From Escherichia virus TH34, in the sequence record MT446407.1: a stretch of 64,000 bases of DNA; one strand, given 5' to 3'. Made by a program: the position numbers and the translations under genes. The notes beneath the pieces are model-generated. The model saw only the letters and a list, made by a program, of their open reading frames with translations. It was not told the origin of the DNA and did not search any database. This document shows, one piece after another, positions 1-31,781 of the stretch (positions are counted from its first letter, which is position 1; each line of letters starts with the position of its first letter).

Positions 1-1
1 A

Positions 2-214
2 AATTACGACACTGGCAAGAAGTCCAGCAAGGTAGTATTGATTGACCTGAATGACTACGACAACAAGGTTGTTGATAGCAAATATGCGATGCTTGTTAAC
101 GAAGCTACAGGCAAACAAATTACTATTGATCACATGATGCGGTCTAGTATGACGTTGTTCGATGAGTCGATGAACGAAATATCATCCGGTAACGGCACTT
201 GCACCAATCCGTAA
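2..214 (+). CDS. 3' end of an upstream gene (partial; 5' end outside window)
   Basis: Reading frame open from the window edge to TAA at 212-214; an intrinsic terminator follows immediately. Confidence 0.35.
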   Translation, partial: NYDTGKKSSKVVLIDLNDYDNKVVDSKYAMLVNEATGKQITIDHMMRSSMTLFDESMNEISSGNGTCTNP

Positions 215-233
215 CCAACCCGTAAGACTTCCT

Positions 234-259
234 AAGCGCCCTTTTGAGGCGCTTTTTTC
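234..259 (+). terminator. rho-independent terminator
   Basis: Stem AAGCGCC (234-240) / GGCGCTT (248-254), 7-nt loop, T6 run 253-258. Confidence 0.55.
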
Positions 260-761
260 ATTTCTAAGGTGATTGCACATCTTGCCCCTGTTTAGCTCGT
301 TAGAACGCCTCCTGTATGCCTTATTTTCGATTATAAGGCTTGTTTTCTTCCTCCCCTGATGTTATTCGTGCGCGTGCTCATCTATACCTAAAAGAAAGTG
401 AAATTATTTTAGAAAAAGGTATTGCTTTCTTTGCTTGATAGATTTATATTTGAATCTCAGGTTTAGTTATGCAGTCGGTAACAAGCCTGATAGGCTAGAC
501 TTTTAGCCTTGCTCTTTAAAAACAAGGTTTGCTTAGGAGTGGTGCTAACAAGCGTCATTACTATAAGGCACTTAGTTGATTATCCTAGTCGATTCCTCTT
601 TCATGCGTGGATTTGGCGGCCTATAAGGTCGATACTTCAAAGAAATCAGCGTTTAACAGTGTACTAGATTCTCTCAAGGCAAACTTTGTTTACTAGCTCT
701 TTAAAAATTCGATTAGTGTATCTTGATAAACTCCCAACCATGCCATAATGAGGATTTATCC

Positions 762-962
762 ATGAACATTTACACCTTCTCAAGCAAAGACACGCAAATC
801 ACTTGCACTAGCATTAACGTTACTAACATGATTATGAGAATAGTCGGTAGCACGTTACAGCAAGCGAAAGAAATGATAGCTGATGCCGACAATGGCAAAT
901 CTATCGCGGTGTTATCGCTGGTAAGTACGGATAAAGATTTAACCTTTAAACGTATGAACTAA
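762..962 (+). CDS. hypothetical small protein (67 aa)
   Basis: ATG 762 with GAGGA 7 nt upstream; track ORF 723 is the TTG-extended version; no similarity recognised. Confidence 0.25.
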   Translation: MNIYTFSSKDTQITCTSINVTNMIMRIVGSTLQQAKEMIADADNGKSIAVLSLVSTDKDLTFKRMN

Positions 963-1023
963 GGTAGGTTAGCGGCCTCAATGGTCGCTAGTTTATCAAG
1001 ATGCATTAATCGAAAAATAGTTG

Positions 1024-1051
1024 TTGACACGTCGAATCACTATGATAAGAT
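1024..1051 (+). promoter_or_regulatory. sigma70-type promoter candidate
   Basis: -35 TTGACA 1024-1029, 16-bp spacer, extended -10 TGaTAAGAT 1043-1051. Confidence 0.3.
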
Positions 1052-1255
1052 GTGATCTCAGCAGTACAGAACACTTCCAGATAGATGATTAGCATCATGT
1101 AAAAAGGCTTAAACTGGAAGGAGTGGGAACACTCAAGGCACGACGCCGAGGAAGACGGCGACATATTTAACGCTCTTTAACAAATTATCATCTTGCCCTT
1201 TCGCATAGATTCAAGCGAGATAAGGGAATAGAATAAAAGAAGATGATAAAAAGAG

Positions 1256-1283
1256 TTGACAAGGTGAAACACTCTGTTAGAAT
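1256..1283 (+). promoter_or_regulatory. strong sigma70-type promoter candidate
   Basis: -35 TTGACA 1256-1261, 16-bp spacer, extended -10 TGtTAGAAT 1275-1283, A-rich tract upstream. Confidence 0.5.
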
Positions 1284-1553
1284 GTTCACTAAGCAAGGCA
1301 ACTTGCTAAACAGTTCCCTAAGTGACGTAGCGCGGGAAAGGTGGCACATAGTGCAGCGCGTAGGTCGGGTATAGCCGCCCCGTTAGTGCATAAGTAGGCT
1401 TAAAAATGAAATGTTTGCGGAGTCATGAAAACCGCACCGCTCTTTAAAAATATGAATCAGAAAGTTAAGCGCAACCGCTTACAATCTTGTTAATCCAATG
1501 CGTGATTAACTAGTCATTCGAAAGAATAGACGAGAAAAAGATTTAAAAAGTGG

Positions 1554-1582
1554 TTGACACGCTAAACGGGATGATTCATAAT
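1554..1582 (+). promoter_or_regulatory. strong sigma70-type promoter candidate
   Basis: -35 TTGACA 1554-1559, 17-bp spacer, -10 CATAAT 1577-1582, A-rich tract upstream. Confidence 0.5.
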
Positions 1583-2493
1583 GAGCACTCACTAGGCAAC
1601 TAGTGAAACGCGAAACCACGGCGAACGGTGGCGGGAGGTGAGAAAGCACCTCGATAGATTTACCGCTCTTTAACAATTTAAACTTCTTCCTATATCGGTT
1701 GAACATGATGAGCAATAATAACCATTGCAAGTCATGCCAGATAAAACGATGTAAGGCGCTCTAGAGTATCAGAGAAAACGGCCTTGCAATCCCTTACTGG
1801 AAACGATGCCACTGATAAACGAAGTTATCGAGTACATGCAATGCTTAAGCTAATCACCTACGGTTAAAGGGTAGCGGCGGCGGGGCTAGTAAAGTGCTAC
1901 GGTAATAGACGTTAATCAGGGTAATCAATCCCGACTAATTTAGCTCAATAGCGAGCGACGGAATGAAGGTTAAAGAGTAGCAAATTGCTATTTAATAATA
2001 AGGTTTAAGTGTGAGTGTTTACTGAGCAAGTTGTTTGATGCACATCAATATGATGTGAGTACATAACAATGCAATGTAGTAAACCGTGAGAGAGATAATC
2101 AAACGCCAATTTATCAGGCGGTTAATGACTCTTTGCCATATACTTTCCCGTAGTAGGTGATAAGTCGGCTTAGAGAGTTAATATAAAAGGGTATCGCGGA
2201 GCGAACGTAAAGTAAACAGTAATGCTATCGGCTAGAAGGTTAGCTAATTAGAGATAGACACACTGCCTTATTATGATGATTAATCATCGCTGGCAAATCG
2301 GCTTCGTTTATAGCGATTAATAGAATCCACCGGATGAAACATCATGGCAAGTTAGGCGGCAAGGTTAACTCCTGATAAGTCCGCCTGATTTACCACTGAT
2401 TACTAATAGTTAGTGATTAGTGTTAAGTCATTGTGACTTGAATAGCTCATAGAGAGCGGCGCATAGAGCGTTTCAATTAAAAGGTAAATTATC

Positions 2494-3396
2494 ATGGCTA
2501 AATCTTTCAATCTGGTTAATGAATCCGGTTTTAACGCACTGGCTAACAACATTCGCAGCAATAACGCAGCAATTAAGCAAGATGTTTCTAACTTCCTGTT
2601 AGGTCACTTACAGCACTTCCGTGCTAACGGTAAGAAGTTAGACGTGTTACAGGCGGCGGTAGACTTCCTGTTAACTGAACGTTACCGTGATTTAGATGTG
2701 ATTGCAGTTGCAATTTCTTTCCTAACTCCTGTTAAGTACAACAGCGACGCGGCGAACGGTAAAAAGAAATGGATTAATCTGGAAGGTGAAGCGAAAGCGA
2801 AAGAAGACGCTAAACCTGAACAAGTTAAGGCCAAAATGGAACAAAACCGTGCCCGCTGGTCTAACTCCTTTGAACGCTTTGCGAAAGGCGAAGACGTGCA
2901 GGTTGATAACCCAGCATTTTATAAAGGTTGCAACGACAACGTTCCGGTAGCAAATCAGATTAACCAGAAGGTTAACGAAAACTTTAATCAGGACATTTAC
3001 GCTTTAACTGATCGTTTGGCTGCAATCCGTATTGAAGCGGCACTACTGGCCGATGAACGCAACGGAGCATCTTCTGATAACACTATCGCATTGAGTGAAG
3101 AAGTAGGCAAAGTTAAGAAAACTTTCGATTCACTCCTTAAGAAAGTAACCGCATCAACTGTATCTATCAGCGATGACTACTTGATTAACGCATCTTCAAA
3201 AGAGCTTGAATCTCTGGACTCATACGCTGATGAAATGGAAAAGGCGATCAACGAAATGACCGAAAAATTGTCTAACCTTCGCGGTCGTATCTCAAATGCT
3301 TCAACTGTCAAAGCGAACGAGAAAGCGGCGGCAGACGAGGAAGAAGTATTGCGTAAAGCTGCCGAGATCATGGCAGCACGCCAACAAGCTGCATAA
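2494..3396 (+). CDS. hypothetical early protein (300 aa)
   Basis: First long ORF after the promoter leader; ATG 2494 with AAAGG upstream; no motif recognised. Confidence 0.6.
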   Translation: MAKSFNLVNESGFNALANNIRSNNAAIKQDVSNFLLGHLQHFRANGKKLDVLQAAVDFLLTERYRDLDVIAVAISFLTPVKYNSDAANGKKKWINLEGEAKAKEDAKPEQVKAKMEQNRARWSNSFERFAKGEDVQVDNPAFYKGCNDNVPVANQINQKVNENFNQDIYALTDRLAAIRIEAALLADERNGASSDNTIALSEEVGKVKKTFDSLLKKVTASTVSISDDYLINASSKELESLDSYADEMEKAINEMTEKLSNLRGRISNASTVKANEKAAADEEEVLRKAAEIMAARQQAA

Positions 3397-3417
3397 CCTA
3401 CAATAAAGAACATATAA

Positions 3418-3450
3418 GGCGCTATTCGAAAGGGTAGCGCCTTTTCTTTT
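3418..3450 (+). terminator. rho-independent terminator
   Basis: Stem GGCGCTA (3418-3424) / TAGCGCC (3435-3441) followed by TTTTCTTTT. Confidence 0.55.
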
Positions 3451-3504
3451 ACTAGTGCATTGATTCAGTGTACTAATCAAAGAAACTAAAAAGAGATAAA
3501 CACC

Positions 3505-3729
3505 ATGCCAAAATTGAAAACAGAAGTTAAGATGTATCGTAACGTCATCAACAACATGACCTATCGAAAAACCGATAAATATGGAATCGAGTGTAAGTGC
3601 ATTCTTACCGGTGAATGGTATCCGTCGCCGATTCAAGAACAAGCGTTAATTGAAAACTCTGTTACTTACACTATCACGCAGGAAACTAAGCTAGGCCGAT
3701 TCCTTCGTAAGTTAGGGCTACGCAAATGA
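3505..3729 (+). CDS. hypothetical protein (74 aa)
   Basis: ATG-initiated ORF in compact array; no similarity recognised. Confidence 0.45.
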   Translation: MPKLKTEVKMYRNVINNMTYRKTDKYGIECKCILTGEWYPSPIQEQALIENSVTYTITQETKLGRFLRKLGLRK

Positions 3730-4670: not shown

Positions 4671-4728
4671 GCCTCTTCTCTGTACCAGTAGTCAACTACT
4701 ATGACGCTCTTCTTGAGCGTCTTTGTGT
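4671..4728 (+). repeat. conserved post-stop element, copy 1 (GCCTCTTCTCT...CTACTATGACGC + hairpin)
   Basis: Near-identical 11-12-nt blocks shared with 11773-11828; both copies start right after a stop codon and end in a terminator hairpin. Confidence 0.4.
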
Positions 4729-4751
4729 CTGCCGCCTTTGTGCGGCTTTTT
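4703..4751 (+). terminator. tandem rho-independent terminators
   Basis: Hairpin GACGCTC/GAGCGTC (4703-4721) + TTTGTGT; hairpin GCCGC/GCGGC (4731-4746) + TTTTT. Confidence 0.5.
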
Positions 4752-4911
4752 GCGTAGCTAGTGATGCCTAAAGGGCACTCCCTTTGTGAATCATTGGCAT
4801 GGTTCAATCCCTATTGGATGGTCATTTGACCGGGCCTTTAACGAGGCCGCTTTTTTAAGAGTCTTTACGAGGATTCTTAAATGAGTGAGGTCATGTTCAC
4901 TCTTTCAGGTC

Positions 4912-9448: not shown

Positions 9449-9524
9449 GCACCCTTAGCTCAATGGATAGAGCAGCGACCTTCTAAGTCGTTGGTTACAG
9501 GTTCGAGTCCTGTAGGGTGCACCA
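9449..9524 (+). tRNA. tRNA-Arg: tRNA-Arg (anticodon UCU)
   Basis: Cloverleaf by eye: acceptor GCACCCT/AGGGTGC, D-arm GCTC-AATGGATA-GAGC, anticodon loop CUUCUAA, T-arm CAGG-TTCGAGT-CCTG, encoded CCA. Confidence 0.8.
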
Positions 9525-31301: not shown

Positions 31302-31781
31302 ATGAAAGCTATTTTTGAAGGAAGGGAGTATGATGTTCCTGATTGGGTTAAATACATAGCCCGTGACTATGATAATCTGGTTTGGGCATATGGAGACGTA
31401 AGACCTGTGTTTAATGAAAACACTGGTAGTTGGTCTAACATGTCAAAATTACCAGGATTTATTCGGGCACTTGGCTCTTCTAGTCGTCCTGTAGGTTTCG
31501 CTGCTGACTCACTTGTTGAGGTTGGTGTTGAAAAGGAAATAGACAAGCCAGAAACAATTTGGGTTCTATCTTCAAGCACCCCAATTAAAGGAAGTCGTGG
31601 GATTTCCTTCTATGTTGAGCCTGTCGCTTACTTCAAAAACAAGCCGACCATTAATGCTCTGATGTTAAAGAACATTCCTTATTCACAAGTTGCTACTTTG
31701 TTAGATAACGGAACAGTGCTTGTTGAGAATAATGGGACAAATCAAATCTTTTATGATTTAGAAGAAAGGGTTTTAGAATGA
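31302..31781 (+). CDS. hypothetical protein (159 aa)
   Basis: TAAATG-coupled ORF. Confidence 0.5.
   Translation: MKAIFEGREYDVPDWVKYIARDYDNLVWAYGDVRPVFNENTGSWSNMSKLPGFIRALGSSSRPVGFAADSLVEVGVEKEIDKPETIWVLSSSTPIKGSRGISFYVEPVAYFKNKPTINALMLKNIPYSQVATLLDNGTVLVENNGTNQIFYDLEERVLE

Follow-up and report, generated by a model that had tools for sequence, protein, structure and literature searches.

The gene-poor stretch at positions 215-2493 of Escherichia virus TH34 (sequence record MT446407.1), analysed here within a window of 64,000 nucleotides (nt), is best explained as the principal early transcription unit of a phiEco32-like phage, built like the leader of a ribosomal RNA (rRNA) operon. Three tandem promoters for the host sigma70 RNA polymerase are accompanied by five copies of a 12-mer, GCTCTTTAAMAA, that matches the boxA consensus, and the last copy is followed by about 0.8 kilobases (kb) of conserved structured RNA, one gene for a 300-amino-acid (300-aa) protein and an intrinsic terminator. 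The first-pass annotation of this DNA had suspected an early control or non-coding RNA region entered by host RNA polymerase, an expectation that the sigma70 promoters and the structured RNA bear out; it had overlooked the 0.8-kb RNA behind the last boxA copy. The gap is a locus of the Gordonclarkvirinae (phiEco32-like) podophages of E. coli, with the genera Kuravirus, Suseptimavirus, and Nieuwekanaalvirus, and its phiEco32 counterpart lies between genes 125 and 124. The closest sequence is that of phage TH42, with 97.6% identity across the whole 2.3 kb. The main comparison set consisted of 16 relatives from the three genera; a distant set of five metagenomic relatives was chosen via homologues of the 300-aa protein (49-69% identity), and their contigs were then compared.

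The GCTCTTTAAMAA element was found in five exact copies in the window, at positions 511, 696, 1172, 1439, and 1665, all on the plus strand. Only 0.01 copies were expected and none of 100 shuffled sequences reached five, in line with the earlier impression that so many copies in one orientation are unlikely by chance. The copies are either perfect or absent, since a search of the window with one mismatch allowed added none. All five match perfectly the gamma-proteobacterial boxA consensus GYTCTTTAANA, the site of NusB/S10 (Baniulyte et al., 2017; PMC5725501). This consensus was matched six times in the whole window compared to 0.51 matches expected, the sixth being a lone GTTCTTTAACA at 31663-31673 on the minus strand, antisense to genes and at chance level (~0.5 per window). 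The agreement with rrn leaders goes beyond the search pattern and includes C at -1, A at +11, and T at +12. In the rrnH leader of E. coli K-12, a boxB hairpin is followed by TGCTCTTTAACAATTTATCA and then by boxC GTGTGGGCACTC; copy 5 has 16 consecutive nt in common with this leader, and the orthologue of copy 3 in phages Bas86, Bas88, and MLP3 has 19. The 12-mer, whose function had been noted as unknown, thus matches a published consensus and shares up to 19 nt with an rrn leader.

Copies 1 (511-522), 2 (696-707), and 4 (1439-1450) read GCTCTTTAAAAA, and copies 3 (1172-1183) and 5 (1665-1676) read GCTCTTTAACAA. Copy 1, which is present in the sub-lineage of the window only, lies in the loop of a CCTTG/CAAGG hairpin, copy 2 is located 55 nt 5' of a small gene, and copy 3 lies ~114 nt past the predicted start of the first promoter, P1. 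The sequence immediately 3' of copy 4 (1451-1471) can pair with 1560-1580 in the third promoter, P3. Copy 5 is the universally conserved copy and precedes the next start codon by 825-834 nt in all 16 relatives, despite an identity of only ~74%.

The 12-mer was conserved in every relative examined. The 16 relatives contain 67 perfect boxA copies, all within the same gap and on the transcribed strand, most of them 18-155 nt 3' of a near-consensus promoter. Each of the five metagenomic relatives has a gene-free gap of 3-3.4 kb with two or three perfect copies on the plus strand only, the final one 901-936 nt ahead of the ATG and preceded by a purine-loop hairpin at a distance of 7-12 nt; in four of the five, a near-consensus promoter with an A-rich upstream tract lies ~100 nt before the last boxA. 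The rrn arrangement of a boxB-like hairpin 5' of boxA is shared by kuraviruses and distant relatives, where a hairpin with a purine-rich loop and a covarying stem stands 7-12 nt before the last boxA. In the window, this boxB-like hairpin of the P3 leader is located at 1635-1652 on the plus strand, has an invariant AGAAAG loop, and ends 12 nt 5' of boxA 5; the hairpins ahead of the other copies are not uniform. The copies lie on the transcribed strand of untranslated RNA and, except for copies 1 and 2, downstream of a strong promoter. Based on this sequence evidence, we consider it very likely that the 12-mer is a functional NusB/S10 site.

All three promoters are on the plus strand. P1 (1024-1051; TTGACA-16-TAAGAT) and P2 (1256-1283; TTGACA-16-TAGAAT) have a TG-extended -10 element, whereas P3 (1554-1582; TTGACA-17-CATAAT) has an A-rich upstream tract. 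They score 10-11 of 12 consensus positions and fall within 560 nt. Scanning both strands of the window for sites with at least 10 of 12 positions yielded 15 sites, three of which are P1-P3, and these are the only plus-strand sites of that class with a perfect -35 element in the whole window. The scan thus confirmed the three near-consensus promoters, two with an extended -10, that had been called at 1024, 1256, and 1554. P3 is kept in all 16 relatives and has an equivalent promoter in the distant ones. The GC-richer, hairpin-prone stretches reported after the promoters were also recovered, with a GC content of up to 0.42-0.45 over 1051-1650 and predicted stable hairpins at the start of each promoter's transcript.

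The terminator upstream and the presence of three sigma70 promoters "in the spacer region" have already been reported for phiEco32 and SU10 (PMC4281155) and are not new. In contrast, the rrn-type boxA identity of the 12-mer and the large RNA both appear to be new for this locus. The accessible phiEco32/SU10 spacer papers make no mention of boxA, Nus factors or structured RNA, and the searchable literature, which did not cover the primary phiEco32 descriptions, where an earlier mention is possible, contained no paper tying boxA to phiEco32-like or other virulent phages. In the paper on Salmonella phage 7-11, the antitermination strategy "remains to be defined".

By analogy with the rrn leaders, transcription would be initiated by the host sigma70 RNA polymerase at three very strong tandem promoters, and each transcript would soon present a boxA element (cGCUCUUUAAnAAU). 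NusB-S10 would bind it and assemble NusA, NusG, and SuhB on the polymerase, and the polymerase so modified would be fast and Rho-resistant. Rho resistance would matter because 0.9-1.3 kb of untranslated RNA has to be crossed before the first start codon. The untranslated stretch consists of one conserved two-domain structured RNA (1677-2472); a single 300-aa gene and an intrinsic terminator complete the unit. Each of boxA copies 2-5 (four of five) immediately precedes a strand that pairs at long range, its partner being found 45 to ~290 nt downstream, and we therefore propose boxA tethering as a folding aid: a boxA held at the RNA exit could bring the neighbouring helix strand to the distant partner. 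For rrn operons, it is proposed that the modified polymerase keeps the nut-like element at its RNA exit and that the leader strand is thereby "delivered" to its complement past the 16S rRNA, where the RNase III stem forms (PMC8632103); the phage layout would be well suited to exploit such an effect. In long untranslated arrays of clustered regularly interspaced short palindromic repeats (CRISPR) boxA provides a shield from Rho (PMC7665894). From these analogies, the boxA-recruited Nus factors probably let the host polymerase cross the long RNA fast and without Rho termination and aid its folding. What we infer from sequence is that Nus factors bind, that Rho is resisted, that folding is aided, and whatever the RNA may do, whereas the consensus match, conservation, strand, and position of the motif and the existence and architecture of the RNA are read from it directly. 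A further scenario can be offered tentatively, as one possibility among others: the kuravirus-group phages may hijack the boxA/Nus/SuhB machinery, by which the host transcribes and folds its rRNA, to build a 0.8-0.9 kb RNA of their own that would represent a new class. Once released (e.g., by RNase III), this RNA would work in trans during early infection, as a ribonucleoprotein that serves host takeover or counter-defence, possibly in concert with the 300-aa protein.

Several observations weigh against the proposed boxA/Nus leader. No boxC (a GU-rich, UGUGUGGG-like element) was found 3' of any window copy when the sequences were read against the rrnH leader, and no recognisable strong promoter in the window precedes copies 1 and 2. 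The large RNA is composed of 17% C, with a positive GC skew, and is densely folded; being C-poor, G-rich and so folded, it may be a poor Rho substrate even without boxA. The right end of Salmonella phage 7-11 (1-1053) has ~1,050 gene-free nt before the first early gene and contains no consensus boxA. RNAalifold predicted that boxA 5, together with the flank upstream of it, pairs with the 3' end of the RNA and the Shine-Dalgarno region; we rejected this pairing because the columns are invariant, a local hairpin is backed by covariation in PAS59, and L047 has lost the flank pairing. Finally, the strong terminator after the single downstream gene argues against long-range antitermination, so that antitermination over a long distance into the remaining early region is not implied; rrn-type complexes read through intrinsic terminators poorly. 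For the rrn complexes themselves, boxA is the main requirement and boxB is dispensable (PMC8632103). Inverted repeat I5, in which 1969-1985 would pair with boxA 5, was also discarded, as it is not conserved in relatives. A profile search of the 7-11 leader with nhmmer revealed no homology to the kuravirus RNA, and a link to 7-11 at the protein level was dropped since no relationship between its gp151 and the 300-aa protein could be detected.

The boxA copies could also act as a sponge for Nus factors, in which case three to five copies on an abundant early RNA would titrate NusB-S10 (and SuhB) away from the rrn operons of the host and host rRNA synthesis would collapse; modification of the polymerase on phage DNA would then be of secondary importance. 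Such titration, which is compatible with a boxA/Nus leader, would suit the presence in each genome of several copies with a perfect consensus downstream of the window's strongest promoters and the two copies (511 and 696) that lack a recognisable strong promoter; a consensus boxA transcribed from a plasmid reportedly competes for a host factor. However, there is about one copy for each promoter, the copy conserved in all relatives has a fixed position directly before the structured RNA, which fits action in cis, and the distant relatives have only two or three copies. We therefore regard the sponge as an unlikely explanation that nevertheless deserves to be kept in view.

The large RNA extends from the last boxA to the next gene (1677-2472, ~0.8 kb). 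RNAalifold predicted 238 pairs for the 16 sequences, 70 of them with compensatory double changes. The share of paired cells was 98.5% compared to 35-48% when the partners were slid by 1-3 columns, and the 70 compensatory pairs compare to 5-12 after sliding; none of 500 shuffles reached the observed values. In an alignment of 19 sequences, in which five distant sequences were added and aligned by sequence only, 90.7% of the cells were paired (36-47% when slid) and 135 of 223 pairs were compensatory (50-65 when slid). Among the cells of predicted pairs, G·U combinations were far more frequent than A·C ones (401 vs 18), and therefore the plus strand acts as RNA and a DNA cruciform is excluded. 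The folding z-score was -3.7 on the plus strand and -2.0 on the reverse strand. In contrast to the neighbouring gene, where variability by codon phase was 0.078, 0.052, and 0.236, the RNA region had no periodicity (0.084, 0.085, and 0.079), and its conservation equals that of first and second codon positions in that gene. The longest stop-free run on the plus strand measures 28-90 codons and is not conserved. The 1677-2472 region thus has neither a conserved open reading frame (ORF) nor a third-position bias and behaves as structured non-coding RNA by its compensatory pairs, its strand-specific tolerance of G·U, and the lack of a coding signal. We regard it as virtually certain that the structured RNA is real.

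All elements of this RNA lie on the plus strand. Domain 1 (1677-1974) is closed by a helix between 1677-1690 and 1960-1974 that begins at the first base after boxA 5 and in which 7 of 12 pairs covary among the 19 sequences. An inter-domain conserved hairpin, GAGTAGCA-AAT-TGCTATTT, occupies 1975-1993. Domain 2 (1995-2274) is closed by a helix of 10 base pairs (bp) between 1995-2004 and 2265-2274, which is 99.5% paired and covaries in the distant relatives, changing from AAUAAGG/CCUUAUU to AAUAUGG/CCUAUAUU and to AAUUUGG/CCAAAUU; more generally, helices that are invariant among kuraviruses covary once distant relatives are included. A 3' series of eight conserved hairpins fills 2275-2472 (2275-2288, 2296-2318, 2333-2343, 2353-2387, 2394-2422, 2424-2440, 2445-2457, and 2458-2472) and is followed by the ribosome-binding site. 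Invariant single-stranded runs, such as AAUAACC, ACGGUU, UGUAGUAAA, AGCGAA, and GAUAAG, suggest tertiary or protein contacts. The motif GGUUAAAGRGUAGC was seen repeatedly in the RNA (1862-1875 and 1968-1981, and also at 2361-2366). Two invariant loops, UAACC (1719-1723) and GGUUA (1862-1866), are complementary to each other and may form a kissing-loop contact.

As a single large structured RNA, this element appears to be new and is a candidate new class. A search of window positions 1-3600 with cmscan against Rfam 15, the families of which include GOLLD, ROOL, introns, ribosomal protein leaders, 6S, and transfer-messenger RNA, returned chance-level matches only (E <= 10). An origin from the host was rejected, as BLAST of the large RNA against 5,426 E. 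coli genomes gave no match, and a search of IMG/VR with an invariant 16-mer of the RNA retrieved known kuraviruses and chance matches only. Two roles are about equally likely: the RNA may serve in cis as a leader for stability or translation of the 300-aa gene, or it may be processed into a trans-acting RNA.

A structured transcript downstream of strong promoters might alternatively mark a replication origin, where the 0.8-kb RNA would act as a primer or R-loop former like ColE1 RNA II, or in the manner of transcription-activated phage origins, and boxA would be incidental. Strong promoters feeding a long non-coding structured transcript would be expected in that case as well, and primers of the RNA II type are also constrained by structure. 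However, there are no iterons and no AT-rich unwinding element, covariation extends over the whole 0.8-kb multi-domain fold rather than over one hybrid-forming stem, and the RNA adjoins the ribosome-binding site of the next gene in a closed unit with a terminator. An origin was also sought in the GC skew and rejected, as the skew merely tracks gene orientation and has no switch at the gap. Altogether, an origin at this place seems quite improbable.

Equally, the 12-mer could be a site at the DNA level, such as a phage or host operator, an origin iteron or a packaging signal, rather than an RNA signal; regulator binding and packaging had both been suggested in the first-pass annotation. In favour of such a site, the motif is short, exactly repeated, and concentrated in non-coding DNA not far from a genome end, and covariation cannot decide here since it is invariant. 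Yet the transcribed strand carries all 67 copies of the 16 relatives and all copies of the five distant ones, which follow promoters at varying distances and are not inside them, and over 11-19 nt the motif equals a known RNA signal. The region itself, by the linear records of SU7 and phiEco32, is located 2-4.5 kb from the right genome end, and the gap thus lies neither at the terminus, as had been left to check, nor inside a terminal repeat, where a genome-terminal packaging or repeat element would belong. Because of this strand bias, the variable spacing, and the non-terminal position, the operator and packaging interpretations do not fit, and we consider a DNA-level site highly improbable. 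Processing sites had been proposed as well and are unsupported for the 12-mer itself, even though long duplexes suited to RNase III adjoin it. Lastly, it is scarcely credible that the gap holds unrecognised protein-coding genes whose coding function explains its conservation, as the coding sequences (CDSs) placed there in records such as those of ShigP1, NJ01, Paul, 101114UKE3, and L041 are countered by the missing codon periodicity, the short and unconserved stop-free runs, and the compensatory changes and G·U bias that point to RNA, only 762-962 behaving as coding.

The CDS calls inside the gap or the RNA are, with positions in the relatives' own sequences, ShigP1_00035 (2812-3015), NJ01_006, labelled 'cathepsin L-like' (2325-2492), Paul_130 (1918-2094), one at 4678-4893 of sequence L041, and 9-10 'hypothetical proteins' in 101114UKE3 and CHD5UKE1. 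These database CDSs are very probably spurious, and annotations of several records can be corrected accordingly. A small gene upstream of the gap is labelled 'terminase' in several records, which looks like annotation carry-over.

Between the promoters and the large RNA, the early leader contains further structured elements, all on the plus strand. The leader of the P3 transcript (1589-1652) comprises a 5'-terminal hairpin with a GCAA loop (1589-1606) and a covarying hairpin (1616-1631) ahead of the boxB-like one. A short GCAA-tetraloop hairpin, formed by the AGGCAACU repeat (family D6), begins both the P2 (1292-1307) and the P3 transcripts; these 5' hairpins are possibly stabilisers against RNase E. 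A long hairpin of 65 nt, TTATCATCTT...AAGATGATAA, at 1185-1249 stands immediately 3' of boxA 3 and adjoins the -35 element of P2. It is almost invariant in the alignment of 16 phages, better conserved than its surroundings, and has a compensatory A>G/T>C change in SU7 and PAS59; candidate roles are processing, protein binding or occlusion of a promoter. An optional structured element of ~90 nt (1313-1399; GUUCCC...CGCGGGAAAGGUGGCACAUAGUGCAGCGCG...CGGG...CCCG) lies between P2 and boxA 4 and is present in 5 of the 16 relatives. Its stems covary, it has no Rfam match, and it is 82% identical to positions 1880-1975 of Salmonella phage 7-11, where an annotated CDS overlaps. The spacer, -35 flank, and -10 element of P3 (1560-1580 and ~1500-1565) pair with upstream RNA, and positions outside the promoter elements covary; therefore, selection seems to favour folding of the P1 and P2 read-through RNA across P3.

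The only sizeable plus-strand ORF in 215-2493 starts at 723 or 762 and ends at 962. In comparison with four relatives, 2-3, 0-1, and 10-12 differences fall on codon positions 1, 2, and 3, respectively, and this bias of substitutions to the third position identifies 762-962 on the plus strand as a genuine gene of 66 codons (MNIYTFSSKD...). The earlier description of 2.3 kb with at most one ORF was accurate in this respect. The gene product has no Pfam or PHROG match. The gene is bracketed by a duplex, the 5' arm of which (708-741) starts immediately after boxA 2 and the 3' arm of which (981-1014) lies beyond the gene, both on the plus strand (inverted repeat I1, 34 nt, 85% complementary). In the five phages having the gene, the duplex is 25-34 bp long with a predicted energy of -42 to -46 kcal/mol, which is the kind of structure that RNase III cuts in rRNA and T7 early RNAs.

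The conserved 300-aa gene (2494-3396, plus strand), a homologue of phiEco32 gp124 that belongs to phrog_13018, is the 3' neighbour of the gap and is co-transcribed with the RNA. Its product has nothing significant in Pfam and matches only a PHROG family of unknown function, and its AlphaFold model (predicted local distance difference test score, pLDDT, of 76) has no informative match in PDB or BFVD. A protein-based scan of IMG/VR detected five close relatives. A strong intrinsic terminator at 3416-3443 (plus strand) closes the unit, and an equivalent one is found 3' of the 300-aa gene in the distant relatives; therefore, promoters, boxA, RNA, gene, and terminator form one conserved unit. On the other side, a first small early operon and its intrinsic terminator separate the gap from the genome end. 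This terminator (234-262, plus strand; a GC-rich stem of 7 bp and a T-run) ends the operon at the same place as the terminator annotated in SU7. A search for transfer RNA (tRNA) and transfer-messenger RNA genes gave none in the gap, the sole tRNA of the window being tRNA-Arg (anticodon TCT) at 9449-9524.

Full-consensus boxA copies in rrn arrangement, located downstream of the strongest early promoters in a family of virulent phages, would extend the Nus machinery to a new use; rRNA operons and lambdoid phages are the textbook cases, to which CRISPR arrays and suhB were added recently. Such a leader may help to explain how these phages escape Rho, the silencer of untranslated and foreign transcripts. 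The cargo may be of greater importance, as it is a large RNA of deep conservation that belongs to no known family and in which more than 130 pairs covary. Since the kuravirus-group coliphages Bas86-Bas94 of the BASEL collection can now be grown on E. coli K-12 (PMC11990801), this RNA is directly open to genetics, structure probing, and cryo-electron microscopy.

Among known systems, the E. coli rrn leader, on which NusA, NusB, NusE, NusG, SuhB, and S4 form the antitermination complex, resembles the phage unit in the boxA sequence, identical over 12-19 nt, in the order of hairpin and boxA, in the strong tandem promoters upstream, and in the large structured non-coding RNA downstream. In both, the cargo is enclosed by a long-range helix, one strand of which adjoins boxA (PMC8632103). 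In contrast to the rrn leader, the phage has no boxC, carries several boxA copies, one per promoter module, and transcribes a cargo of 0.8-0.9 kb that is unlike rRNA and is followed by a protein gene and an intrinsic terminator; the dependence on Nus factors is here a prediction.

The nut sites of lambdoid phages (lambda, P22, and 21), which are used by the N protein, also place boxA on an early phage transcript beside a hairpin with a purine-rich loop, and their boxA recruits Nus factors of the host, as is predicted for the window phage. However, boxA of the nut sites is located 5' of boxB (PMC8632103), whereas in the phage the hairpin comes first, and the lambda-type order of boxA 5' of an N-bound boxB was not found. 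The window copies have the full consensus and the window phage is virulent, whereas lambda boxA is a weaker variant, CGCUCUUA. No N-like protein was detected with Pfam and PHROG among the six neighbouring early proteins, to which the search was confined. A further comparison is with the boxA elements of CRISPR arrays (Stringer et al., 2020; PMC7665894) and of the suhB 5' untranslated region (Baniulyte et al., 2017; PMC5725501), where a consensus boxA is used outside rRNA and either shields a long untranslated transcript from Rho or controls a downstream gene. These elements are chromosomal, in single copy, and belong to the host, unlike the multiple copies of a virulent phage that are tied to a large structured RNA.

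The RNA itself is reminiscent of GOLLD and ROOL (PMC5737381, PMC12286853), which are likewise several hundred nt to ~0.8 kb in size, multi-domain, rich in covarying helices and associated with phages. The hosts and phages differ, no Rfam model matches the phage RNA, its place is the 5' leader of an early gene behind boxA, and nothing suggests that it forms multimeric cages. The spacer region of phiEco32 and SU10 (PMC4281155) is the same locus, with its three promoters and upstream terminator already described.

Phage T7 has strong tandem early promoters, A1-A3, and early RNAs processed by RNase III. The window resembles T7 and T5 in its three very strong promoters for host polymerase near the genome end of the early genes, and long duplexes suited to RNase III bracket its early RNA segments. 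A pre-early promoter of T5-like phages has a near-identical context to P3 and is also followed by boxA. In these phages (Demerecviridae), AACTGCTCTTTAACAATTT, an exact match of 19 nt to the rrn leader, was found in dozens of genomes. In the left terminal repeat of Escherichia phage saus132 (2440-2522), it is part of the pre-early (first-step-transfer) region, 5' of A2 and A1, and stands ~10-15 nt beyond the point where a near-consensus sigma70 promoter starts; a second T5-like copy, GCTCTTTAAAA, is located ~480 nt upstream of AACTGCTCTTTAACAATTT. Given an rrn-type boxA after a T5-like pre-early promoter as well, virulent coliphages could make general use of boxA-driven early transcription, a strategy that has so far gone undescribed.

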